Source: Yuukianura sp. NJ FZ-2021
Lineage: Eukaryota
Length of the DNA: 64,000 nt
Reading direction: 5' to 3'
Assembly (NCBI GenBank): GCA_046563655.1
Contig: CM102286.1
Coordinates: 5,208,001 to 5,272,000 of the forward strand
Part shown: positions 4,001-57,016 of the stretch, in pieces
How positions within the stretch are numbered: position 1 is the first letter of the stretch
Layout: every line of letters begins with the position of its first letter
Translations under genes and position numbers: made by a program
Notes under the pieces: generated by a model
Database searches by the model: none
What the model was told of the DNA's origin: nothing
The model's input: the letters and a program-made list of their open reading frames with translations, nothing else

Positions 4001-7000
4001 CTTGACCCGTGACCTCTGACCCTTGACCCAGCGTCATCACCTCATCATATCATATCAAACACACGCAAGTGTCATGTCATTCGAAAGCAGAAGTCAAATG
4101 CAGTCGATCGATGTAATGACCTGTCACCTTTGACCTTTGACCTATCGCGGTGACCTCACATAAAATCAAACGAAAAATAGGCATGTGATATATCATTCAA
4201 AAGGGGAGGTGAAATGCAGTTAGGGACATTGACCTGTGACCGTTGACCTTTGATCTATGGCCATGACCCAATAAGTACACACAAACATAGGCCTGTGATA
4301 TATCATTCGAAACAGGCGGTCAAATGGACACTTGGTTTACGTATGTCGCGTTAATTCTATGACCTATGGCACCAAAAAGGAATTAAGTTCCACAGTATAT
4401 GTCTCTCCTCTACATGTTAAACATTAATTGGATGGACGGGTAGTTTTAAGGGATTTCCGCCTGGGCAAAGGGTAGGGTATGATATTTTCATAAAAATAGT
4501 CCAAGCGGGTCAGCATGTATCTCAAACGGGTAGCGGGTTCCCAAAAGTGATACGTTTTTCTGTGTGTGTTCGTATACACTACCACAAAAGCTAGCCCCGC
4601 TTTCACAAGCGGGTATCATACCTTGTATGTTAAATAAAAATTAAAAGCACTAACGTTTTACGTCATTGAATAGCGATTCCGCTTAACAAACGACTTCCTC
4701 TGAATCTGAGCAGCGGAAAACGGAAGTCACATATGAATTCTGCTTTCCCAAAAAAAAATCCCGCCGTTCCACTGCAACTTGTTGCCGGTTGACTGAAGCC
4801 CCTTCCCAGAAACTGAATGAATCCAAAAGCCCTTGCTCTGGTCCCTTCCGGTTGTCTCCATTTCCTGAGTGAAAACCAACAATAGAATCAAGCTAACAAT
4901 ACTTGCAGTATCACACTCTCAGATTTCATCCATTCACTCAAAAATAGTTCCTTTGTTACAAAATTGGGCTAAACCATTCAACAGATTCTGTTTCAGTTCG
5001 TCCCCAAGCAGAATATATTGAGGTGTTGATCGGAAAATAGTATCTGAAAAAGAAATTTTCTTGGGAACTGCTAGGTTAAGGTTGAATCCGTTAGTTTTAA
5101 CCACACAAAACTGACTTTGTTTTTTATTAAGTCGTTGAGGAAGTGAGGCCGGAAGTCAAGAAGACTTTAGGTTAGGTTAAAACTGCGTACGTTAAGGCCT
5201 CGGGAGGAAGCATTTGTCGGTTAGAGTAGAAATTAATGGCAGCCTTAACCCCCTCCTAAGCCTTAGCCGTTCTTCACCTGTTGTAAAATTATTCTTGTTG
5301 GGCTTCCTTCTTCTGTCTCCCTTCAGTTACACTTGAAAATCATGAAGAATTGTCGTCCCCAATTGCAATGTCTTCAACTCGTTTCCGTGGAATCGACACG
5401 AAACGGACCTTAGTTCCCCTCAGTACTTGTGACAATAACCGTGAAGTAATTCAGTTTCATTTGATTTATACGGAACAGATTGTAAGAGAAGTGACTGTAA
5501 CGACGCGGCAAAATTCAAACACGAAACCACCCGCAGACGGAATTCCCTTGAGCAGAAATAACCTCCTTCAAGACAGCACGTTACCGCCAAGAATTCCGAG
5601 TCAAAGCTCGAACACGCTAACGGATGAGCAGAAAGCTGTAAGTATCAATTCAACTTGTCACTTAGCACATGATCCCATAAATTCCAAATCTGCAGGGATT
5701 CAGCGCAACGATGGGGTCATAAGGCACACAAAAGTCAAATTTCCATACCCGTCTAACCTAATCCATAATCCAACGAACATAACTTAACTCACTACTCTAA
5801 GATTCCTCAATTGTCTCCAGGGGGTAAATTATAAATTGTGATGTCTTTCGAGCCAAATTTCAAAATTATCTTTTCAAGAAAAACCGCAATTTTTTCCAGA
5901 AACTTGTTTAAAATGAGTTCTTTTGCAAGTTAAATGGGAGTTTAAATTGTCGGGGGACTAAATTTATTACGGTGTATTGTTTTTTAAACAAAAGGAAAAC
6001 ACGGTAATATACTTTGCAATGTTTGGCAATCTTTGTTACAGAAGTAAATATTTGCCACAATGGATTTGGCCAGAACATAGTTTTTACTTATTTTTTGTTT
6101 TAAATGTTTTTGACAAATTTTATTGGCGGTAATCAGAAACCATATTTTAAGTACGTTTTTTTGTTGCAGTTGACGCTTGATAGTTGCACAGCAAAAGTGA
6201 TTCAACAAAAACTGTTTGCAGACCCAACGCAGACAATACGACGTCGCAATAGTTTGGATCTCCAAAAATTTATTCAGGTAAATTTTTTTTTGTAAAAAAA
6301 AAAAAACATAAATTCTGCCAACGTACAGTGCTTTTCGCTATGAAACGCGAGGACGAAAGTGTCGAAATTAAATTTCGACATGAAAGTTACTTAAGTGAAC
6401 TGTTTTCAAAAAATTCTTTTGATTCTGGGCTAGTTACTCACGTATTGTAGTAGAATTTTGGGTTGGATATATTTGGTAAAAATTTAATAGGTTTTTGCAG
6501 ATTTAATTAAAAGATAAATGGACCAAATTTCCAAAGTTAGGAATCAATTGTCAAGATTAATCAAAAGACTTCAACGTCTGTATAAGGCAAATCCACTCAC
6601 CCTACACTATCATTATGAAAAATGGATTTAGTATCAACTTTTAACATAGAAAGATTTCAAACTGAAGATGAGATTTGAAACAATGGAAAACCAGTAATTA
6701 AGGACTGTAGATGGAGGTAGATAAACCTACTTCTAGAGTCACACACAAAGTAAATTGGAAATAGGGGTCGAAATTCGTCGTGGTTTTGCCCAGATCCGAA
6801 TCCCGAATCTATCCGAATCTGATCTCGGCAAAATCCGAATCCGGATTCGGATCTCATTTTTTAAAGAAATTCGCCCTTACATAATAGAAATTAAAAAATA
6901 ACACTTTTATTTATGATTGAACACTAACTACCCGTTTATGTTGAGTTTGTTTTCTAAAGTAAAAAGTATTGAAACTAAGTAGTAAAGACTACGACTCTCG

Positions 7001-10000
7001 GTAAATGAGAGAACCTGAAAATACGAACGAAGAAAGCAGACATTGTCTAAAGTGTCATCGCTTAGGCGTGATCGCATTTTGTTACAAAAATATCCGGCAG
7101 ACGAAAATGATCTCTCCGCTTCAAATGTTGTTGGTGGAAAATCAGTAATGGTACTGACAATGTCTTCGAACAAAGATAATCCAAATTGACTAAGTTTGGA
7201 ATCCGCAGTTGAAAGTACCGCTTCGGCTGTCATGGAGTTTTGAAGTGGGATCAGTCCAAGGTTCCAGACTCGCCGCTCCGTGGAAAACAAGTTAAATGTT
7301 CATGCACTTTGCTGACTGCCCTGATTCTTCACGTAAAAAATGCTTACCCTTGATTGGCTAAAAGTAAACTTCAACTGATTTGAGTTAAGGTTGATTATTT
7401 AACTCAAAAGTAAGATTGAACGGAATGGGAAAGACAAGGAACAGAATTAATTAAGTTGAGTTTTCTAAAAACATTTCCGAAAAGAGGCTCCTTAAAATTT
7501 AAATTCGCGACTACATCTATTTAAGTCTCAAATTCGTTTGGATCCGAATCCGCATGCTGTCAGATCCGAATCCCGAATTATTCGGATTCGTCAAAAATTC
7601 GGATTTGGATCCGAAGTCAAAATCCGAATTTCGACCCCTAATTGGAAACGAAAGGCCGGTTTTCACTCAACGCGGTAGCTTAAACGTTTGAACTTATTGG
7701 GGACCAAAGTGTGATGAGAATGTAATCAACTAAAGAAAATTGTAGGTTAAAAAGACGGTTAAGTTACAATTCAGTTGCAAGATCATCGACGATCTCATTC
7801 AAAAAGAGGTAAACTCGGCCAATGATGTTCTAGTTTGCCACAAATCTGTCGATGTGACATTTTCCTGTTTTTACTTTATGCGTGTTACACAAGCTCAATC
7901 TTCGGTAACTTCAATCTGCCAATGAATGCCTAATTTTCAGGTTTATGAAGACAACTATGTCTTGATAAATTTTTATAACTTTTGCGAAATTCTTGTTGAA
8001 TTTGAAACTTTGTGAGGCAACAATGTCGACTTTTGTCACAAATTGGAATCCGGTACTTTCTTTGGACACTGTCAATTTACTTTCCAAGTTTACCGTTACA
8101 ATTTCTTGAATCATGACTAGGACCACCCTCCATTTAAATAGTTTGGTTACCATGAAAGATGAGACAATATCTACAGTAGTAACTCTGCTCCTTGAACTTG
8201 ACATCGAATAGTACGTCCTAACTGCAGTTATGTTGGAGGTCAAGTTCATTACGGAAGGCGAGGTTGTTTTACTATTTGAGAAAAATGACTCTCCCAGTTG
8301 CTTCTTGACAAAACCATTAGTCACGATTGTAATGAGGACTTTGTAGAGGTGGACTCGAGGCAGGATGCTCAAATGGCATCAATTTAGGTTTATGACTTTA
8401 CTGGTCGCATTGACAGGAGCTGCTACAGTTAGGCCTGAAATGTTGCAACTTGCAGTGCCAAGGACTTGTTTACTTAAGAGTTCGATGTCGCAAGTAACAA
8501 GGTTGAAATGTGCGTGAAATTGCAGGTTTTTAATGAAGAGCAAATTTTGATGTCATCAATGCAGGGGCGACATCCGTCTGAATCTGGAGCAATTCAAACT
8601 CCAAGTTTGGAAAACACCCAAAACTACAAAATGTACGACAGTTACAACGGAAACAGCAATGGAGTCGCCTACTACAATGACTCTAATTCATCAAATTCAC
8701 TTAGCCTGTCCTCCTCCACTGCTGACAGCCTCGACACCGTCATTTACAAAACGTAAGTCACTTTAATTCAGAAACATAACAAAATGTAATTTCAACGTTG
8801 TCTATCCTCTCACTGCGCAAAAGTCGTGTTTTCGAGTAAAAAAAAAGAACTAGGACTAGATGAGGAAAAATTTTAAGAAAACTTTTGATGCCTTTCCCAA
8901 GGCCATATACTGATTGAAACTAATTTTTGCAGTCCTCAGGCATCGGGTCCTTCCAGGAATTGGCGTGAACAAATATTCACAGACTCATCTTCTTCTGGGA
9001 TGCAAATGGACCAAGGTCCCTCCCACTCTACGCGTAGTAAGAACAATGGCTATCCTGAAGGTAGCAATCAATTCCAAGATCACAATCACTCTACTCAGTT
9101 CCAACAGGTACTAATTTTTGTTAACAAACAATTTCCACTGACCAAATCACTATGATTTGCAAAGGAAACATTTGCAAAAGTTCATTCCTCGGGATCACTT
9201 TCACTTTCCTACGCTTTTTAGTTCAAATATTTTACCAAACTACACCAAAATCAAGAAATAAAAATCTACGCATTTCTTTAAATTTTTAAGAAACTTTCCG
9301 AAATTGGTATTCTATGGCAAAATTCTGTTGATAAAGTTTGAAAATTCACATATCAGCTCACTTTTAACGGATAAAAGCTGCAAACACAAAAAGCTAAAGT
9401 GCTAAACACGTCAATTTTCAGGGTCCGAGTCAGTCGTATGGTGTTCACAACAATAATTATGGCCTTGAATACCGGGCCCAGAGTCAGCAGCACCTTCACC
9501 ACATGCAGCACCTATCTTCAACATCTTCCCTCGCAGGTTCCCACAATGGTCCAACCAGTAGCCTGAGAACAGGAAATGGACCTACCAACGGAAATGGCAA
9601 CATCAACGCCTACAGTAGTCAGTCCCAGCCTCATCAGTCCAGCAATTCGTCCACCAACAGTCACTTCAGTAAACAAAAGGATTTCACTGTGTCCAGTACT
9701 ACTGGCTCTGCCTTGGACAAAACCAAAGAATCAACGAAGCTTTTCCCCACCAAAACTTATAACCACATCAAAGACATGATCTCTAGTCGATTTGGAAATC
9801 CCACCGGTGGTCCAGGTCAAACAAATCCGAAAGGAGTTCTGTCCAGTGCCAGTGGCGGGACTGACAAGAATTTGAATAATGCCGCCAGTAGCAATGGGAG
9901 TGGAGGACCTGTTTACAACAATGGAATTGCGGACTCCTGTGGAGGGAACATTGGGCTGCCTACGACATCCTACAACCCGCACCATCATCACTCTGGCGGA

Positions 10001-45722: not shown

Positions 45723-45911
45723 AGCTGCTGCCACTCAGTGTGTTGTGTCGAAAAATTGAAGCTCCGTCCTTCAATTTTTCTCGTGTCGTCGGTTTCTTCC
45801 TTTCTTCAATAAATTGTTCGATTCCGTTGTTTCGCCTGTTTGCTTGAGGTAATCAATTGAGCACTGTTAATTATAATTAATCAGTACTAACTGACTAATT
45901 TCTGGGACAGC

Positions 45912-46437
45912 ATGGCCCCCAGACTTGAGATCGCAGTTGGCCTAAAGAAAGGTCATCCTACAATCAAGAATAAACTTGCAGAACGACCCGCAAGCAGGAA
46001 AGGAGTAAGATAAGAAATAATTATTATGTTCATAATATATTCAGTTCTTAATTATTTGTGTTTCTTGACTTTATGGATTGCGCTACTAAAATGTCTGCTT
46101 CCACTTGTGATTGACTAATTTATTGTTTATTTTTGTTTTCCAGCGTCAGACAAAACATAACAAGTTTGTCAAGGACATTGTTCGAGAGGTCTGCGGACAT
46201 GCTCCATACGAGAAGCGAGCTATGGAATTGTTGAAGGTGTCTAAGGATAAGAGGGCCCTTAAATTCCTGAAGAGACGGGTACGCTATCATTTCATTAACT
46301 ATTCTTCCTGAAGCAATGAAATGAAAGCTTAATTTTTATAAATATTTGTTTTATAGCTTGGAACCCACATCCGTGCCAAGAGGAAGCGTGAAGAATTGAG
46401 CGTAACCTTGACTCAGATGAGGAAGGCCCAGAAGTAA
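45912..46437 (+). CDS. RpL36: 60S ribosomal protein L36 (eL36)
   Basis: Exons 45912-46004, 46144-46278, 46357-46437. Sequence includes [53 protein letters not shown]. Confidence 0.98.
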
Positions 46438-47285
46438 ATACAGTTTTAACTCTATGCCCCTTTTTGCTAATTCGTAAGTGGAGTTAAATATAAAGGATTA
46501 ATAAATGGTTAGCACCTTTAACTTTCATCGGTTCTGTCGATCTCAAATTCTAAGCATCGTTTCTATCCAGATGGGGAACTCTATAGGATATAAATACCCG
46601 TCTGATTCTACAAAACGATGTTAGTAATTGTAGTACCTGAATTTTTCTTCCCCATCTATCATCAGTATCACTTTATCGTTTCAGAAATAGAATTTAATAG
46701 GGGTTCCATTACTTCCAATCCTCGTTGTATTGCAGTTCCAGCGACAGCGAGTCTTCTCATCAGTTTAAGTCAATTGTTCAGAATTTGCTTGAAAGTAAGC
46801 CCTAGATATAACAAATGCATTTCATAATTTCGAGGACTTTTATTTAGTGAACTGACGACGATGATGACAGGATTTGATGGTGACAAATGAATCAGTTGAA
46901 GTGAAGTTAACAGGCTTCACTTTGATCGGTGTTAGTGGTTTCTCGCTGTTGTAATAATTTCAGAAGGAAGCTTAACAAGCGATAGAGATTGAGAAGCTTG
47001 ACCTTGGTTTGGTTGTCTTTCGAAACGGGGTTCTAATCGCTCATTCGTTCGCATAAAACCATCTTCCCCTCCACATGTCAAATTGGCAGGCCAAATACGC
47101 AACGCACTATATCCAATAGCCTAGTAACCTAAAAGTCAAGAAGATCACGGCACGACTCTCCTTCAACATAAAACACATTAGGCTGACTCAAATGCCTGTC
47201 TTCTTCAATTGACACTCCACTGGACAAGACACACTCTCTCCGGTAATCGTCAACTAAAAAATAGTACAGCCTGACCCTAGTCAAA

Positions 47286-49733
47286 ATGAGTCGACTTGTG
47301 AGACAATTACCAAAGGTAAGGTTCATTTTCGTTTCTTTAAACCGGTAAAGTCGACAGATTGGATTTCAAAATTTCAAAGGCTTAATCCAGTGACGCTAAC
47401 TACGATCGTAGATGTTTGCTATTTTGGTAATGATTTGGTTTTTTTGGATTGACTTTACAGGTCCAAGGGAGCGTCAGGGTACCCAAGGTCCATGGCAGAT
47501 TTTATTCCCCACCAGCTGTGGCAAATACAAAGTTATTCATCAATGGGAAGTTCGTGGAATCACAAACGAAGGAATGGATCGACCTTCACAACCCGGCGAC
47601 AAATGACCTTGTCACGCGTGTACCAAAGGCAACGCAAAGTGAAATGTCAGATGCCACAGAAGCTGCCAAAGACGCTTTTAAGACTTGGTCAAAGACTTCG
47701 ATTCTCTCACGTCAACAAATCATGTTCAAATTCCAGCACATCATCAAAGCAAACATGGTAAGACAAAATGTCATAGTTCGAGATAATCAAGCGTACGATT
47801 CTGACCAAATTTTTCTTTTTTTTAGCAAGAGCTGGCCAAGAACATTACACTGGAACAAGGGAAAACCTTGATTGATGCCGAGGGAGACGTTTTGAGAGGC
47901 CTCCGTAAGTTCAATTGTTTATGAATCAAACTCAATTTGAAATAATCATGAATTAAACGTTCTGAATTTATGTTGCAGAGGTCGTGGAACACTGCTGCAG
48001 CGTCCCCAGTCTACAACTAGGAGAAACTCTGTCTGGAATTGCAAAGGACATGGACACATTATCATACCGTGTACCACTCGGTGTCTGTGCAGGAATAACC
48101 CCGTTCAATTTCCCGGCGATGATCCCACTATGGGTAAGTAGAAGCCTGTTTTCGATATTTCCCGTACCCGGACATTGATTTCGTTTTCTTCACTATGTAA
48201 TTCCTTTACTATTTTACAGATGTTCCCATTGGCTCTTACTTGTGGAAACACTTATGTTATCAAACCATCAGAGAGAGATCCCGGAGCCTGTATGATGCTT
48301 ATGGAAATGTTCCAGGAAGCGGGTATGAAAATGAAACCCATATTTGACCAAAAGTGCCAATAATTTCCAATAATTTGTCCATTTTTTTCAGGAGCACCAA
48401 ACGGTGTCGTCAACGTCATTCACGGAGCTCATGAAGCCGTCAACTTTATTTGTGATCATCCGGCAATCAAAGCGATTTCCTTTGTTGGATCCGACCAGGC
48501 CGTAAGTTGCATTTAAAGAAAAGCTAAAGTCAGTGTTACATGATGTAACTTTTACATCTTCTAAAGTGCTCAGAGTGAACGTTTTGATATATTTTTTAGG
48601 GAAAATACATCTACGAAAGAGGATCCAAAAATGGGAAACGTGTGCAAAGCAACATGGGTGCTAAGAATCACGGAGTCATAATGCCAGATGCCAACAAAGA
48701 AAATACTTTAAATCAACTGGTCGGAGCTGCCTTTGGAGCTGCTGGACAGCGATGCATGGCTCTCAGCACGGCCGTATTCGTCGGAGAAGCTAAAGAGTGG
48801 ATACCTGAATTAGTCGAGAAGGCTAAACGGCTCAAAGTGAATGCTGGTACGAAATACTTTTTACAAGTTCAGTTTCAATTGCAATACTCGTCCGATTCTA
48901 TATTTTTTATCTTAACTTTTCAGGACATGAACCTGGAACTGATTTAGGTCCAGTCATCTCACCGCAAGCGAAGCAACGAATCTTAGAATTGGTTGAGTCA
49001 GGAATTCAAGACGGTGCTCATTGCCTCTTGGACGGTCGTAACGTCAAAGTTCCAGGTTATGAAAAAGGCAACTTTGTTGGCCCAACAGTCTTGGCCGATG
49101 TCACTGTAAGTCGTTAAAAACAACAAATGATGTTGAAAGCTTATTCCAACTGAAGATATCGACCTTCTTTACTGACTATATTTAGCCAAAGATGAAATGC
49201 TACACGGAAGAAATCTTCGGACCGGTTTTAATTACTGTCTCAGTTGACTCTCTTGATGATGCAATTACTCTCATTAACAACAACCCATACGGAAATGGAA
49301 CCGCCATTTTTACAACTAACGGTAAGCTTTAAGCAAATATTAAAGTTATCCTACCCTATCAATTATTCTGATTGTTAACAAAGCATTTTATGGACATTTT
49401 ACATTTCTGAACTTTATTTTAGGCGCCACCGCTCGTAAATTTACGCATGAAATTGATGTTGGACAAGTTGGTGTTAACGTGCCTATTCCAGTTCCACTCC
49501 CCATGTTTTCATTCACGGGTTCCCGCGGAAGTTTCATGGGCGACACAAACTTTTATGGAAAAGCCGTAAGTTTTTACAGGCTTAACATTTTATTGATCGC
49601 ATTTTTATATTGAAACGTTTTTGTTCTTAAGGGAATCAACTTCTACACTCAAATCAAGACTGTGACGCAAATGTGGCGAGAAGGTGACGCAACCATTTCC
49701 AAGCCCACTGTAGCCATGCCAGTGATGCGATAG
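47286..49733 (+). CDS. ALDH6A1: Methylmalonate-semialdehyde dehydrogenase (acylating), mitochondrial
   Basis: Multi-exon. Motifs [35 protein letters not shown], catalytic [18 protein letters not shown] and [12 protein letters not shown]; Arg-rich N-terminal transit peptide. Confidence 0.97.
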
Positions 49734-50083
49734 ATTTATGATCTGAAATTGGAGCATATTCTATGCAGTACATTGGTATCGAACGCAGTTGTAAATCACG
49801 AGAGCAATTATATTTATAGTACATGAGCCGCTACCAATTCCATCCCATTCGAAATTCTTCATTTCTTTAAAAGTCAGAGCAAAGGTGCTATTCAGTTGCC
49901 AAAATTTTTATTAAATCAAAGTCAGCAAAGCAACATTTAGTAATTATTTTATTCCACCCAATTCGTAACAGTTTGAACACAAAAAAGTTGAAGCTGAACA
50001 GAAGTTTATGTTAGGGAGCAGAGAGTTTAGAATATTAATATCTAAACAAATATTGAAATTGCTAAAAATTACAAAAGTTTTGG

Positions 50084-51199
50084 CTAAAAACTGGATTCTT
50101 TGAAAGCGATTTCTTCCCTTTCAGGCGGCGTATGACCCCCAACAGTTTTTGATTGTTTGTAATCATAGCTTTCTGTTTTTCGTTTTTGAATATGAATTAC
50201 TTTTACGGCACGAGGATGACGAGTAGCCAGTAGTTTGTTGACTGTTTCTGCGTCACTTGTTTTTTCATGCTCTGGCTCTTTGTCCGGCATTTGTACTGGA
50301 TCCATTGCACTTAGCGGTGTTGGCGTCCTTCGTGGTGGTCTTGACGGTGACACAATGGTGGAAGGTGACGGTTGTCCAAAAAGTTGTTTCGAGGCTTGTC
50401 GGAGCCTTTCGGCCGAAAGTGGTTGGTCATCCTCAGTAGGACTTTCAGGCAATGGCTTCCGTTGTGTTTCGGGTGACCTAGTGACCGTTTTGCTTTCTTC
50501 GTATTCTTCCGTTTTGTATGCAAACCTCTTAGGAGGTGCTAAGTCGTAGGTGCGAACTAAATATGGAAATCTTGCAATTTCAGGTTTTTCGGGCGGCAGG
50601 GGCTTCCGAGATCCTGCTGCAGGCAATGTCAGTGATTTTTCATACTGATCTTCAGCTGAAGTTTCAGTATGCTCAGTTATTTCTTTATCGAATGCTTGAT
50701 GCCTTTGATGAGATTGCTCATATAAATCTGATTTTGGTAGCAGTGCGGCTGTTGCTGTTGGAGACGTTGCTGGAGACTCTGGACCTGGTTTGCTGGACTT
50801 TGTATTTGAAAATCTGTCAAACAGCCTGGAAGTGAGGACTTGTTTGTCGTCGGGCGGAGAATGCGATGCGGATTTGTGAAACGATGGTGGTGTGCCGTCT
50901 CTGTCGAGATATCTCCCGTCCGGTCCAGGCGAGTATGAGCGTGACAAGTATCCAAGATCTCTGTCATCTTCTTCAAATGGTGACGGAGCCAGTAGAGAAG
51001 AGAGGTGCTGAGATAGAAGTTGATCTGACGGTGCAGTTGCATCAGGAGCCAACCGAGTTCCTGGAGCACTGGATTGTTGTACCTTGTCGTCGTTTCTGAC
51101 ATTCAAATGGGATGGACGAGGCGGCCGGGGCAATTCCTCGGGAGTGAATACTTGCGAAGTATTTGTGGACTCCTGAGACCCTGTCCCGGCGGCTAATTG
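50084..51199 (-). CDS. Putative stop-codon-readthrough extension of the claudin (371 codons, Pro/Ser/Thr-rich, ends ESSF)
   Basis: In frame with the claudin TGA (51202-51200), with no stop until 50086-50084. No in-frame ATG occurs until near the end. The stop context is TGA-CAA-TTA. Confidence 0.75.
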   Translation of the reverse strand, partial: QLAAGTGSQESTNTSQVFTPEELPRPPRPSHLNVRNDDKVQQSSAPGTRLAPDATAPSDQLLSQHLSSLLAPSPFEEDDRDLGYLSRSYSPGPDGRYLDRDGTPPSFHKSASHSPPDDKQVLTSRLFDRFSNTKSSKPGPESPATSPTATAALLPKSDLYEQSHQRHQAFDKEITEHTETSAEDQYEKSLTLPAAGSRKPLPPEKPEIARFPYLVRTYDLAPPKRFAYKTEEYEESKTVTRSPETQRKPLPESPTEDDQPLSAERLRQASKQLFGQPSPSTIVSPSRPPRRTPTPLSAMDPVQMPDKEPEHEKTSDAETVNKLLATRHPRAVKVIHIQKRKTESYDYKQSKTVGGHTPPEREEIAFKESSF

Positions 51200-51202
51200 T
51201 CA
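51121..51202 (-). promoter_or_regulatory. Candidate readthrough signal: UGA-CAA-UUA plus 3' stem-loop
   Basis: The mRNA strand reads TGA CAATTA GC-C-GCCGGG-A-CAG-GGT-CTC-A-GGAGT-CCACA-AATACTT-cgc-AAGTATT-C-ACTCC-C-GAG-GAA-TTG-C-CCCGGC-C-GC, with nested complementary blocks. Confidence 0.7.
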
Positions 51203-52355
51203 AGCTTTCTTGGGGTAACCTAAAATACCCCTGGGGGAGGGGGATCTCAATTCGTAAGAGCCTGTGCGAGACAAACGTTCTCGGCGACGCCATTGAATTG
51301 ACGCTTCAATTAAAAAGAAGATTCCAGCGATATGGAGTAGAACGACACCTACGACTGCGCAGACATATGCCCAGGCCAAGTCATTAAACTGCCACTCTGG
51401 TGCCCACACGCGGCTTGCGCTAAGTGTCCCAAAGACTATGACGGCCACTGACCCGAGAAGACCTGGATTCAACAGCGATTGGCAAAATATCAATTTTGAA
51501 AAAAAAAAAAAATTTGAAAATTTTAAATTTACTGTTGATTACCCGCCATTTCGATGAGCATTCCAGTGACGATGAGGTAATGCACCAGTCCGGAATCTGC
51601 TTCCGAAAATTTTGCCAAGTATGCAATCACCATGAACAAGCAAATCATTGCAGTTACGAAGCAGAGGGCGTAGCTTATTTGAACAGGAACTAAAAACGCT
51701 GCAAAAATTCAAACATAAAATTCAGATTTGAACAGGAAGTAAAAACGCTGCAAAAACTAAAACATGAAATTCAGATTTGAACAGGAGTTGAAAACACTGC
51801 ATTCCAAACAGATTCAGATTTGAACAGGAGCTAAAAACACTGCAAAAATTCAAACAGAAAATTGGTTTAAAAAACTCTCTTTTTCAGGAAATGCAGATGC
51901 AGAAACTGCGCACGCAATTTCCGACCTATCAGAAAATTTGCTGTGACTTTTTTTGTCCTTTGTCAAACATCAAAGTTCGAAAACTTGTTGAAATTTTGCA
52001 TAAGTGACTTAATTACTTTCGAAACAGCTTTTTTCTTACCGGGCAGAATGAATTCGCGGATGTCGTTGTAAGTGACCGTGATCGGGTAGTAGATCCATCG
52101 ACATCCTTCATAGCCTCCGGTCAAGTAGGGGTCATAGTAGTACGGGTCATGGATCAACTTGTAGCAGCTCATCCATAAACCCAGTTTTTGAAATTTAGAT
52201 GAACTTGGCGCCTTGTCTTCATCCACAACCAGCCAATCAGGAGCCACCATTCCAATGAAAATGATGAGAAACGCCACCATGAAGATGACCGTGGCAATGT
52301 AGGCAACAATGGAACGACCTCCGCCGCATCCGGATGCATTTGAATGGCTATCCAT
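51200..52355 (-). CDS. Invertebrate claudin-family tetraspan protein (kune-kune/sinuous/pickel-like), 244 aa to the first stop
   Basis: Exons 52355-52040, 51698-51543, 51462-51200. Four hydrophobic segments, the claudin W...GLW-x2-C...C signature (PDWL...KLGLWMSC...EGCRW) and second-loop WAPEWQFNDLAWAY. Confidence 0.9.
51678..51863. repeat. Tandem 49-bp repeat (~4 copies) duplicating the claudin exon-2 splice acceptor
   Basis: Units start at 51678, 51727, 51776 and 51819 (TTTGAACAGGAx...CTGCAAAAATTCAAACA). Confidence 0.9.
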
Positions 52356-53201
52356 GCTAAGGTCAATGTGAACTTTTTATACAAAATTTAATAATGTGAA
52401 TTTTTGGATTTGCAGCACATTTAAACTATTTTTTGTAGCTACATGGTTTCCTTATGTGACTCGAGCAGCAACTACCTGCAGACTGAATGTAAGGTGATGA
52501 AAGTTAAAGTATGGGGATGTAAAAATTAAGATTTAAAGTTAAACCTACTCTTCAGCACTTTAGCTAACCCCCGATTCTGTTTTGACTTAAATGGAGGCGT
52601 CGTTAGGTGGAATAAGCACACAAAGCTAAGGCGGAGTCCTAAGAGGTGATGCATAACAATTCTAAACGCTAATTGTGTTTTGTTTAAGCTGTTGGATGAC
52701 CTGTGTTTCGAATGTGACTCATAACTTAATAGTCTCCAAATTATAGTCTGTTTATTGATTAGTCTTAAGTGATTGGATTCTTTCAGATTTTAATTACTTG
52801 AAGGCCAAGACTCATTAACTTTGGTTGTGTTTTATTTTTGTAACGCCGAAATCTGCATTTTAGGATGATGACAAATTTTTCAACTGCAAATTCAGTCCAA
52901 TTTTGCTTCAAATGATTTATTCTACTTATTTCGAAATTTTGAAACTCAACGTTTCCTTTTGAAGGAGTGACTCATTTGAGACGCGTAAAGTCACCCGCAT
53001 CTTTAAATATTTTTAGTTTCCAAAAAGTCCTTGGACGATGCTTACTTAACACTCCAATGTTGAAGTAAAAATTAAACTTAAAATATTCAACAGGTAATTC
53101 ATGACTCATGAGAAACCAGAGTCTTCATCACTAAAAATAGACGATTCAACGTTTTCTCGTCAAAACTCGATGTTTTACAATTCCAGTTACTAAAAAGTCA
53201 A

Positions 53202-53821
53202 TAGCTTGTTTCAAATAAAGCGATTATAATCGCTTTTCAGATTAATCTGCCAAGTCAGATTAATCTGAGGTGGTGCGCAGGCGCAGTGCGCCACTTTTTG
53301 GATTATAATCGGCCAAAAAAGAATCCACAAAAACCACGATTCTCTTGGATTAATCTGCTCCCTCCACCCGACCATCACCACCCACTGTTGTTATTTTTGA
53401 AATTTTCAATTCCCGCCCTTCCACATCAGCTGACAATCGGCCGAAAAAATCGAGTACACTCAAATTAATCGATTATAATCCAAGCCGGGTTAATCCGCGG
53501 AGGATTATAATCTTTTATTTGAAACAAGCTATTAATCTGCCAAGTCAGATTAATCTGAGGTGGTGCGCAGGCGCAGTGCGCCACTTTTTGGATTATAATC
53601 GGCCAAAAAAGAATCCACGAAAACCACGATTCTCTTGGATTAATCTGCTCCCTCCACCCGACCATCACCACCCACTGTTGTTATTTTTGAAATTTTCAAT
53701 TCCCGCCCTTGCACATCAGCTGACAATCGGCCGAAAAAATCGGATACACTCAAATTAATCGATTATAATCCAAGCCGGGTTAATCAGCGGAGGATTATAA
53801 TCTTTTATTTGAAACAAGCTA
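53202..53821. mobile_element. MITE-like element with internal 290-bp tandem duplication including the right TIR
   Basis: Left TIR TAGCTTGTTTCAAATAAA at 53202; right TIR TTTATTTGAAACAAGCTA ends at both 53531 and 53821. 53241-53530 is nearly identical to 53531-53820. Internal GATTATAATC/GATTAATC palindromes are present. The flanks AAAGTCAA and ATATTCAA may be a decayed 8-bp TSD. Confidence 0.8.
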
Positions 53822-55340
53822 ATATTCAAAATCAATCGCAGTAACACGCAAAATACAACAATAGACTCCGTATTGACAAACATCATTCGGAATAGACATT
53901 TGGGAACAAACAAAACCGCTTTCTAAAGTCGTTCAAGGATATCTTCGCACAAGCATTATTGTGAATTTTTATGAGCCGCTAGCAAATGACAGTTGAGGCG
54001 TTAGAATAGTAGTACTTTATGACTAGCGTCAATATTTTTAGCACTTTGCTCAGGAAATAGTTTAACGACTTACACCGTTAAGTCCTTGGAGGGTGAAAAA
54101 TATTGTTCCTTACCCTCCCCTTAACGACACAACCAATTTACACTTCAACTTTCCAACGCATCAAGCACTTCCCTTTAGTCTCTTTATGGAAATGAACAGT
54201 ACTTCATCCAAAATTGCGTAAATGTGCTTCATAACCATGTCAAAGTACTACACCTATTTGCTTTAGGTAAAAGGTGTGAAGATGCTAAGAACCCCCTCCG
54301 CACATTTGACAGTAACCGAAACAGAAACAGACTACGCATAAGTATTTTGAAGTATTTTTTTTTGGCAAATGTTGCAATAGCCAAAAATGTTACGAAAAAT
54401 TGTGGCTATTGTTAAACTGAGACTATAATAAAGCTAATTAATAAAATTATTTTAAATTCGTTCATTTACATTTTAGAAATGAATATCGTTGATTCACATG
54501 GACATAGTAGAATATAAAAATTGAAAATGAAATCGCTGGTAGCAGTGTTCTGTTTACCATTTTATTATGAACACAAAACGCTGGCAAAATAATAAGCATA
54601 GAACATTATAGGTGAATAACAATAAATAATTAATGTGCTCTTTAACTATCCCGATTAGTAGTAAAGTAAACGTAAATGGGTCAAAAGTGATTCAGACAGT
54701 CATACCGTGGTATACAAAATAAAGTTTTGAACACAAATAGAAATAAGCTTAAGATTAACTTCGACTTGGATTACATTACAAATATTTTTGAACTTTAAAG
54801 TTCAGGAATTTTGTAACAAGTTGAAGAATATTTAATTGTGGACCAGAAGACGAGGAGCATAAACGTTAAGGAGGAGAGACTGAAGTGAGGCTATGAATAA
54901 AGGAAGTCAAATTAAAATTGCAAAATATTCTTCTCTGTCATTTCCTGGGTGCATAACAATGACTTATTCGCATGTTCCTTTGCACACCCAAATTCGACTA
55001 ATGCATGTACAAAATTCCCACCGCTTAACCTGACTCCTAAAGCATGAACTCTACAAAGGAATTAGCGTCTTTAGTCCACAAATTCAACCGTCCCGTTGCC
55101 CCTATTATCGTTAGTCATCTTCATCACTAGTACGCTTCTCTCGATCACGAATAATCGTTTTGATAATGGGCGCCTTACTGGATACTCCCACTCGACTTGC
55201 AAGGATTTGCTTCCTCGGTTGTTTTATTTCACCAACAGGAACGTTAAAAAATGGCGCTTCCATCAATCTGTAGAAACATGAAATTGGGTTATCATGAAAT
55301 ATACGTAAAAAATCGCCAATTTGGCATGATATTTAGGTTC

Positions 55341-56290
55341 TTACAGTGAACTGCCATTTCCTGAATTTGGATTTAGAAAGTCATTGCCCATGTCCACTTC
55401 AACTAAGTCAATCGGGGCAATACGACCAGAATCAACCATCATTCCAATGTCGTCGTCGTCATCGTCCACTTCCATTCCGTCTTTGCCACTATCGTCCAGT
55501 ATCCTGTCGCCGTCATCTTGTCCTGAAGATGGAGTGACTTCCCAGTCGGGTGAAGTGAGATACAAATGAGACTCGTCGTAAATTCCGTAATCGGCAGTCA
55601 GTTTAGAAATATCTGCAACAAGAAAGGTAAAGCAAATGTTAAGTTCAAAACTATAATAAAAATGATAACAAACTCGGAAATGGTTAACTAACCAAGTTCT
55701 GTGAGGATCTCGCTAACTTCTGACAAATTGCTCATTTTGCTTGAACATTTCTCTTCGGTGATTCTAAGGTGCCAGTAGCCATTGACGTGATACTTGGTAG
55801 GATCTGACGGAGCCTTGATGATGTGTCGTATCTTGGAATTGTTTCTTTTTGCAAAAGCCATTTTGAATTTGAGTAAATTCGTCACGAGTTTTATGTGTTC
55901 TTGAGTTCCAGGGGAGTTGCTATTTGACGAATTGCATAAACGGTACAACTGTAGAATTTGCCCATGACAGGGAATACACAAGGCTACCGTTTTCACCCTT
56001 GCTTCGGATAGTTGCACAATTTTTTTATTCGCATTTCTTACGCACAAGATTTTGGCAAAATGGTTGAAGATTTTTGAGTACAATGTCATGGGGTAGTTGG
56101 TGGTGTCCATTGCAAGTTCCGGTGAGTCCTTTGTGTTGACAGTACATACGAAACAATTTATTTCCTTCGTAGTCGTAAGCTTCCGTACCAATTGTCGCGG
56201 TGGATTTGAAGTAGTGTTGCCAACTCTAGAATTCTCAACAGAATTGGATGGTGATGAATTAAACTTTTCAGGGGTACTCTTGGCCGTCAT
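55341..56290 (-). CDS. ZAD(zf-AD)-like C2-C2 domain protein with acidic C-terminal region; 3' end uncertain
   Basis: Exon ~56334/56290-55693 has CFVC...(~55 aa)...LCIPCHGQILQLYRLC, spliced in phase 1 to an Asp-rich exon at ~55612-55341. A further possible exon lies near 55268-55111. Confidence 0.6.
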
Positions 56291-57016
56291 TGTGATTGTC
56301 GTATCAAGCGTTTCCTGCTTCTGCGCTATCAACTGAAAACAAAGTTTCACAAACTTTGTCTTTTGCAAACGATTTAAAAGATAGTGGAACGTTTAAAATG
56401 AGCTCAACTGACATGAAATGCGTGCATTAAAAAGTAAACAAATTAAAATGGATTCCACAACTTTTCCTGAAGGTGAACTAAATTGAATTTCCCTCTCTTT
56501 TCCATCTACCTCTCTCGGCCGAGAGAGGGTGAAATTGTATTTCAGTTTTACAAATGGCAACCATTTACAAAAAAAAACAGTACGTATCATAAACGTCATT
56601 AATAAGTTGTAGTTTGACTCGTTTTCGATGAATCAATTAACTGCGGCTTTAAATTCTTAATTATTGATTAATTGAGATGTGAAAAGGAATTTTTTTTAAT
56701 TTTCATGGTGTTGTTCGCTCCCTAAACTCCATTCATATGGACATTGTGAAGTGCGGCAAATTGAAATTCTTGAATAATTTTAGTGGCGGGAATTTGTAAA
56801 TCCTTTCAAACTTCAAACAGGCAAAAAGTGTTTTCTTTCTGCTCTGCCGCCACTGCTGGCAAAAAACAAGAAACTGCAATGTGCCATGTGTTTTTTTTTG
56901 AAAACATGCAAACATAGAATTTAGCGTTGCACTACTGCCCTTTAGTACTTCGTTTGTAACTTCTGTTTTCAGTGAATTTGCATTAACTTTGACTTATTCT
57001 TTCAGTGTTGAAAAAG

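Follow-up and report, generated by a model that had tools for sequence, protein, structure and literature searches.

A claudin-like gene lies on the minus strand of the stretch of DNA analysed here, which comprises 64,000 nucleotides (nt) from Yuukianura sp. NJ FZ-2021 (assembly GCA_046563655.1, contig CM102286.1, positions 5,208,001 to 5,272,000). The whole of this stretch is called the window below, and coordinates refer to it unless another sequence is named. The first open reading frame (ORF) of the gene ends at a TGA codon. It is followed in the same frame by a second open stretch, here called the extension, which is longer than the first ORF and would encode a long tail. The relation between the two is the subject of this analysis.

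The comparative set consists of three genomic sequences: the window and two loci found in a metagenome scan, here called L001 and L002. L001 is the syntenic orthologous locus. Its synteny with the window extends over more than 11 kb, and takes in an upstream gene, the claudin-like gene and a convergent aldehyde dehydrogenase gene. L002 is a contig of 1.6 kb and comes from a more distant relative. Folsomia candida was compared through its protein models. The Folsomia cluster holds three of these: a short form of 260 residues (XP_021950046.1), a MAKER model of 791 residues (OXA57735.1), and a RefSeq model of 454 residues that contains the tail only.

The gene and its protein family

The first ORF is made up of three exons (52355-52040, 51698-51543 and 51462-51203, minus strand), which total 732 nt or 244 codons. 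Exon 1 (52040-52355) starts with the ATG at 52355-52353 and encodes the first transmembrane segment (TM1) and the first extracellular loop, which contains KLGLWMSC...GC. It is 80% identical to the L001 exon and 62% identical to Folsomia XP_021950046.1. Intron 1 (51699-52039, 341 nt) has the form GTAAGA...TTTTTGCAG, and intron 2 (51463-51542, 80 nt) the form GTAATC...AATCCAG. Between them, exon 2 (51543-51698) encodes TM2 and the start of TM3, and is 71% identical to the L001 exon. The first-ORF part of exon 3 (51203-51462) encodes the end of TM3, TM4 and a basic cytoplasmic stretch, and finishes with ...GYPKKA.

The window was scanned against the Pfam family Claudin_2 (PF13903) as exon fragments; exon 1 scores 27.6 bits and exon 3 scores 29.1 bits, where the cut-off is 29.1 bits. 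With the full-length Folsomia orthologue as query, the score is 86.9 bits and the match covers profile positions 2-192 of 192. Judged from these matches, the encoded protein is a member of the PMP-22/EMP/MP20/claudin superfamily, an assignment that Pfam makes at the broad level only. Word-based searches using exon 1 and the Folsomia protein matched only the Folsomia cluster, with one hit each, and retrieved no insect junctional claudin of the kind represented by Drosophila Megatrachea, Sinuous and Kune-kune. There are four hydrophobic segments, with a basic stretch after the last one. On the basis of this arrangement and the established topology of the superfamily, the C-terminus is expected to be cytoplasmic.

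At the 3' end of the gene, the likely polyadenylation signal is the AATAAA at 49948-49953 (minus strand), the first on the mRNA strand. Counting from the start codon, there is no AATAAA or ATTAAA on that strand before 49953-49948, which is 131 nt beyond the TAG that closes the extension. This agrees with an earlier model-made account of the window, here called the preliminary description, in which no AATAAA was seen before about 49950. In L001 the first AATAAA after the coding sequence is at 7428 of that locus, about 144 nt past its own TAG.

It is worth adding that intron 1 contains a tandem array of its own acceptor region, which runs into the start of exon 2 (51677-51863; period 49, 3.9 copies, 79% matches). 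The repeated unit consists of the 3' splice site ...TTTTTGCAG together with the first 22 or so nt of exon 2. The exon is reached from the last copy only, and the upstream copies are on offer as decoy or alternative acceptors. The L001 counterpart of this intron is plain and 77 nt long.

The stop codon and the open frame beyond it

According to the preliminary description, which was based on the letters of the window and their translations, the claudin frame ends ...GYPKKA-TGA at 51202-51200 and continues with CAA TTA and 371 uninterrupted in-frame codons, giving a product of about 616 residues. A re-reading of the sequence agrees on each point. The proposed leaky stop (51200-51202, minus strand) is followed by an extension of 371 codons (50087-51199, minus strand), rich in proline, serine and glutamate, and reading ...KESSF just before the second stop, a TAG at 50084-50086 (minus strand). 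The putative read-through product thus has 616 residues, being the sum of the 244 codons of the first ORF, the stop codon and the extension. An open frame this long is not a matter of chance, because the other two frames of the window extension carry 9 and 20 stops. The same pattern is seen in the relatives. The extension has 371 codons in the window, 339 in L001 and 362 in L002; in each species the first-ORF frame is free of stops, against 9-24 in the other frames.

The TGA falls in one and the same column of the three-way alignment, and TGA-CAATTAGCCG is found at the identical codon in all three sequences. The claudin frames of L001 and L002 both end with TGA and go on with CAA TTA GCC G into an open in-frame extension. 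The spacer CAATTAGCC (51191-51199, minus strand), consisting of the CAA-UUA hexamer and GCC, is invariant in sequence and in its length of 9 nt. From the stop onward, the 13 nt TGACAATTAGCCG form the longest three-way invariant run in a codon alignment of about 1.5 kb; the next longest, of 11 and 8 nt, are near the C-terminus. Only 35 of the 173 columns that have the same residue also keep the identical codon in all three species, and the four successive identical codons at the stop therefore stand out. The first stop is invariably TGA, whereas the second varies (TAG in the window and L001, TAA in L002). A genetic code in which TGA is a sense codon was considered and rejected: over the first ORF and the extension, TGA accounts for 1 of 617 codons, and all seven tryptophan codons are TGG.

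The frame beyond the stop shows purifying selection. A conserved TGA and a coding signature in related species, by which the preliminary description had proposed that its idea be checked, are thus both found. Expressed as the proportions of non-synonymous and synonymous differences (pN/pS), the values for the extension are 0.200/0.780 between the window and L001, 0.372/0.741 between the window and L002, and 0.341/0.812 between L001 and L002. For exon 3, the window and L001 give 0.227/0.811, and the first third of the extension gives 0.185/0.79. Synonymous sites among the three species are saturated, with pS in the range 0.74-0.91. Because pN is low while pS is saturated, the tail appears to be translated from its first codons onward, with the frame of the first ORF unchanged, and to be as constrained as the membrane domain.

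These figures also bear on whether the tail is a separate gene product or the decaying remnant of a longer ORF, or the TGA an assembly error or a nonsense allele. RefSeq does give the Folsomia tail as a separate protein of 454 residues starting from an internal methionine, and prokaryote-style gene callers gave tail-only ORFs (P0004 and P0005). In the window, however, the extension has just two in-frame ATGs, at residues 299 and 304, which matches the earlier remark that it has no start of its own. The tail would thus have no initiation of its own before residue 299, and yet the 298 codons that come before are conserved and constrained, in a frame that, in each of the three species, runs on from the first ORF. 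Since three independent assemblies have the identical TGA, an error or a private allele is ruled out, as is a decaying remnant by the saturated synonymous sites together with a pN near 0.2. Explanations of this kind are barely credible.

When exon 3 and the extension were used as a single query, with the stop written as X, three proteins were matched, of which P0003 alone spans both parts. P0003, whose DNA is L001, has a tryptophan at the stop position, which was set aside: the gene caller had read TGA as tryptophan, and the same reading ran through the upstream intron. An exhaustive profile search with the tail alignment returned only P0004 and P0005 at E<=0.001, both of which had already been found. 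In Folsomia, the 791-residue model is a fusion of the claudin part with a long tail whose end is ...ESSI. The tail-only model, which is proline-rich, is named formin-like protein 20 in RefSeq, seemingly an artefact of its low complexity. By hhalign, the extension and the C-terminal part of the Folsomia tail are homologous with a probability of 95.7%, and in Folsomia the tail is found downstream of the orthologue.

The tail is predicted to be cytoplasmic and mostly disordered. AlphaFold2 gives a mean predicted local distance difference test score (pLDDT) of 49, with four short helices and no fold that could be used for a search, and a Pfam scan of the tails of all three species found no family. 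Conservation is concentrated in the blocks LLAPSPFE, IARFPYL.RTYD, DDQPLSA..LR, SRHPR.VKVIHIQKRKTESYDYKQS and the C-terminal ES(S/C)F. The last residues are ESSF in the window and in L001, ESCF in L002 and ESSI in the Folsomia model. An end of the form E-S-S/C-F/I resembles a class I PDZ ligand, as had been suggested from the window, and is a candidate ligand. Vertebrate claudins are four-pass proteins whose cytoplasmic C-terminus has a PDZ-binding end. The present protein belongs to the same superfamily and has a similar PDZ-ligand-like cytoplasmic C-terminus, but here this end is predicted on the read-through isoform only, where it would follow about 370 disordered residues. The SH3-ligand-like motifs listed in the preliminary description fared less evenly. 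RKPLPPEKP, RKPLPESP and PRPPRP are all present in the window, and PRPxRP is conserved in all three species, where its coding sequence coincides in part with the 3' arm of the stem described below. In contrast, RKPLPESP is lost in both relatives, and RKPLPPEKP is found only as PERP in L001.

The downstream stem and the possibility of splicing

An extended stem-loop is predicted at 51124-51190 (minus strand). Its basal helix pairs 51190-51185 (GCCGGG) with 51129-51124 (CCCGGC), and the inner helices include the hairpin AAUACUU-CGC-AAGUAUU. When 100 nt from the stop are folded, the window and L001 adopt the same four-helix stem-loop, with nucleotide 13 as the first nucleotide, and z-scores of -2.72 for the window (0 of 200 shuffles as good) and -2.43 for L001 (3 of 200). 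With 20 nt more upstream, the z-score for the window is -3.78. L002 looks unstructured at 100 nt (z -0.79, 36 of 200), but at 145 nt it also forms an extended stem-loop from nucleotide 13 (z -2.71, 2 of 200). The loop enclosed by the basal helix is 52-55 nt in the first two species and 113 nt in L002, an extra length of about 60 nt.

The basal helix, G(C/U)CGGG : CCCG(G/A)C, joins identical columns in all three species in a protein-guided codon alignment, which is blind to RNA structure. The 5' arm comes directly after the 9-nt spacer, and the 3' arm is within conserved P/A-R-P codons. One basal pair shows a compensatory change (C-G, C-G, U-A), and another varies as G-C, G-U, G-C. RNAalifold run on a MAFFT alignment gives a weak consensus of -9.46 kcal/mol, with one pair carrying a double change and with the 3' arm of L002 misaligned. 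A second MAFFT alignment again split the 3' arm; the helix is clear when a longer stretch of L002 is used with the protein-guided alignment.

A conserved stem near a UGA could also indicate that the codon is decoded or removed in some other way, either by selenocysteine insertion or by adenosine-to-inosine (A-to-I) editing of UGA to UGG. UGA is the selenocysteine codon, editing requires double-stranded RNA, and editing has been named as a possible confounder of readthrough candidates (PMC3159437). An Rfam scan of window positions 48500-53000 at E<=1 found no selenocysteine insertion sequence (SECIS) and no other family, and there is no SECIS anywhere in L001 or L002, where the only matches are weak ones to microRNA and small nucleolar RNA families. 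The UGA codon sits in a disordered linker with no redox motif, and in the predicted folds it is unpaired or in a weak 3-bp helix. Moreover, the exact CAAUUA context is left unexplained both by selenocysteine insertion and by editing, and we consider either of them very improbable.

One of the weak matches is to mir-4637, in the intergenic part of L001 past the gene (7499-7573 of that locus). It scores 30.2 bits (E 0.019), the gathering score being 89, and most likely arises by chance.

Several points weigh against readthrough and should be set out together. The comparative base is small, consisting of only three genomic sequences, and the evidence for the stem amounts to the same three sequences and one compensatory pair. 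When the fold was scanned in 100-nt windows, the stop-proximal positions came first and second of 68 in the window; in L001 they ranked only 3 and 7 of 63, and in L002 they ranked 1 (at -40) and 7 of 65. Synonymous conservation just past the stop is raised modestly: it is seen at 10 of 14 sites within the first 28 columns of the extension, compared to 105 of 266 elsewhere (P=0.019), with P=0.011 and 0.047 for the other two species pairs.

The remaining points concern splicing. A very short frame-preserving intron might be removed in some transcripts, giving the long isoform without any recoding. The candidate is the 48-nt GT..AG pair at 51181-51228 (minus strand) that the preliminary description had pointed out as lacking a pyrimidine tract, and which does exist in this form; its counterpart in L001 has 42 nt (6242-6283 of that locus). 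Removal would delete the last 8-9 codons of the first ORF, the TGA and the following 6 codons. GT..AG pairs in the correct phase are present in all three species. The donors are respectable: on a position weight matrix made from local donors, GGG/GTATTT of the window scores 7.1 and GGG/GTAATT of L001 scores 7.5, both within the leave-one-out range of real donors (0.8 to 12.5), where the 99th percentile of decoys is 7.5. The sequence CTTGAC or CCTGAC around the stop resembles the branch-point consensus. As for the acceptor, 2 of 15 real acceptors themselves score below zero when left out of the training (-3.5 and -7.0). Finally, the Folsomia MAKER model OXA57735.1 removes the stop by a predicted intron, reading ...DLRS/AADSGEG... 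where the short form has ...DLRSGGASG...GEKA, and the MAKER pipeline used RNA-seq evidence in addition to ab initio predictors (PMC5490193). This junction would fit a G/GT donor and a CAATTAG/CC acceptor, with an intron of about 69 nt if the context is conserved in Folsomia.

The scoring matrices were trained on 15 local introns, inferred from the exons that are conserved in both the window and L001, in two genes, the aldehyde dehydrogenase and the claudin-like one. A junction from 48100 to 48175 was dropped since it had no cross-species support, and the intron at 48323-48391 was retained though it has no counterpart in L001. Measured against this set, the candidate is unusual. At 48 and 42 nt it is shorter than all 25 introns inferred locally, namely the 15 of 66-1065 nt and 10 more in L001 of 65-797 nt. 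Its acceptors score -6.6 in the window and -5.8 in L001, against a median of -6.6 for 215 decoy AGs within the extension ORFs, and have no T-rich tract; 13 of the 15 real acceptors score 1.8 or more leave-one-out. At the position aligned with the donor L002 lacks a GT, and the acceptor that aligns there is in the wrong phase. The best candidates there have donor/acceptor scores of 3.0/-8.6, -2.3/-0.1 and -2.7/-8.6, all of them poor. L002 thus lacks conserved splice sites, and yet the context of the stop, the stem and the constraint on the tail are all preserved in it. The sole acceptor common to all three species is CAATTAG/CC, and its use would imply introns of 36 nt in the window and 30 nt in L001.

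The presence of a GT..AG pair at the stop is itself expected by chance, because frame-preserving pairs of 27-70 nt bracket most ordinary codons in these ORFs (317 of 398, 283 of 366 and 230 of 385 in the three species). In Folsomia, the RefSeq annotation consists of the short form and a separate tail model, and a spliced long form from RefSeq is absent from the cluster. Above all, splicing leaves unexplained why an invariant TGA should abut an invariant CAATTAGCCG. On balance a functional intron at this position is unlikely, although splicing is the strongest of the rival readings.

The genes on either side of the claudin-like gene are also conserved. The convergent gene (about 45900-49730, plus strand) is of the aldehyde dehydrogenase family, with Pfam PF00171 matched on two exons. 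It has at least 13 short exons, which are 78-96% identical to those of L001. About 220 nt separate the end of its last conserved exon from the AATAAA of the claudin-like gene. At 48323-48391 the window has a 69-nt intron in this gene, where the coding blocks of L001 are contiguous, an intron gain or loss between the two species. On the other side, an upstream gene (55114-56392, minus strand; 247-1604 in L001) is conserved at 54-86% identity over three blocks, its largest ORF having no Pfam family. Between them, about 900 bp upstream of the start codon of the claudin-like gene, a 290-bp unit occurs twice with 98% identity (53241-53821), duplicating peptide-like ORFs.

Probable readthrough in relation to known systems

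Conserved programmed readthrough of the UGA is the best-supported reading of the locus, and we put its probability at roughly 0.7. It was suggested by the preliminary description, and the conserved stop context, the constrained extension and the stem with its compensatory change all support it. Most ribosomes would terminate at the UGA and release the short protein of 244 residues ending ...YPKKA, while a fraction would decode the UGA by a near-cognate tRNA and continue for 371 codons. The long form would thereby gain a mostly disordered cytoplasmic tail, with its conserved short motifs and PDZ-ligand-like end. A part in septate junctions, which the preliminary description thought possible, would be conjectural, given the breadth of the family assignment. 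The signal for leakiness would have three parts: a UGA followed by C, the CAA-UUA hexamer, and the extended RNA stem beginning 9 nt after the stop. The conservation of the stop, its 3' context, the stem and the coding signature can be read directly from the alignments; that ribosomes pass the stop, at what rate, and with which partners the tail interacts, we infer from that conservation.

The hexamer is of the tobamovirus type, the context UAG-CAA-UUA being found in tobamoviruses and benyviruses (PMC3159437), and it is covered by the motif named CARYYA (PMC4132726). CAAUUA promotes readthrough in yeast (PMC4615788), and a UGA combined with CAAUUA is reported to be functional in rabbit reticulocyte lysate and in human cells (PMC13517186). 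Compared to the type I signal as generally defined, stop-CAA-UUA or CARYYA (PMC3159437, PMC13517186, PMC4132726), the window and both relatives have the exact CAA UUA. They differ in having UGA where the canonical stop is UAG, in the addition of a 3' stem, and in the host, which is an animal cellular gene. UGA has been reported to be able to replace UAG in animal systems, and type I is described as known in plant viruses, with only types II and III in animal viruses (PMC13517186).

Alphaviruses, several plant viruses and Drosophila kelch are known to have the same layout, in which an extended stem comes after an invariant spacer of 8-9 nt (PMC3159437). In alphaviruses, as in the present arrangement, C is the nucleotide after the UGA, and 8-12 nt of spacer lead to a stem of about 6-12 bp that encloses a variable loop of about 50-150 nt (PMC3159437). 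The differences are that the alphavirus signal is viral and this one is cellular, and that the basal helix here has 6-7 bp with further inner helices. Kelch, like the present gene, is a cellular arthropod gene, with a UGA, a long in-frame second ORF, and a fully conserved short spacer that leads into a conserved extended stem (PMC3159437). In kelch the sequence is UGA-AUG with a spacer of 8 nt, whereas here it is UGA-CAA-UUA with a spacer of 9 nt. The gene family is also different, being here a four-pass membrane protein, and readthrough is in the present case a prediction from sequence.

Readthrough is abundant in insects and in a crustacean, and among ancient cases both TGA and a 3' C are commoner (PMC5100048), which is in line with what the preliminary description had said of its being widespread in insects and crustaceans. 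Since abundant readthrough in Pancrustacea is already known, the present case, as judged from its sequence, joins a known class. Like the Pancrustacean candidates it has a conserved stop, a leaky TGA-C context and a post-stop coding signature, and RNA structures are occasionally found among them too (PMC5100048). The lineage here, to judge from Folsomia candida as the single named relative found, is probably a springtail or close to one, apparently outside those sampled in that work. The readthrough regions reported there are, as a group, less constrained, whereas here an extension of 371 codons is longer than the ORF of 244 codons that it follows, and is equally constrained.

For the specialist, the interest would lie in a type I CAAUUA after a UGA in an animal cellular gene, in the invariant 9-nt spacer with its covarying stem, and in an extension that exceeds the first ORF in length and is under equal constraint. 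As far as titles and abstract openings allow us to judge, readthrough has been reported neither in Collembola nor in a claudin-like gene of an arthropod. We therefore advance, tentatively and with rather less confidence than in readthrough as such, the hypothesis that UGA-CAAUUA, with the invariant 9-nt spacer and the covarying stem, constitutes an ancient isoform switch in springtail-like hexapods. It would choose between a bare four-pass protein and one that carries a disordered scaffold tail of 340-530 residues with a PDZ-ligand end. In that event it would be the first case of a natural type I readthrough signal to be described for an animal gene, and its extension would exceed the main ORF in length while being as constrained.

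Annotation of the gene as subject to readthrough would reconcile the three inconsistent treatments that it has received in Folsomia candida, as a short form, as a spliced long form and as a separate "formin-like" gene. If readthrough is confirmed, the locus would provide a natural test case in an animal for the joint action of stop context and downstream structure. It would also be an example of a protein of the membrane-junction type that gains a scaffold-binding tail through recoding rather than through splicing.

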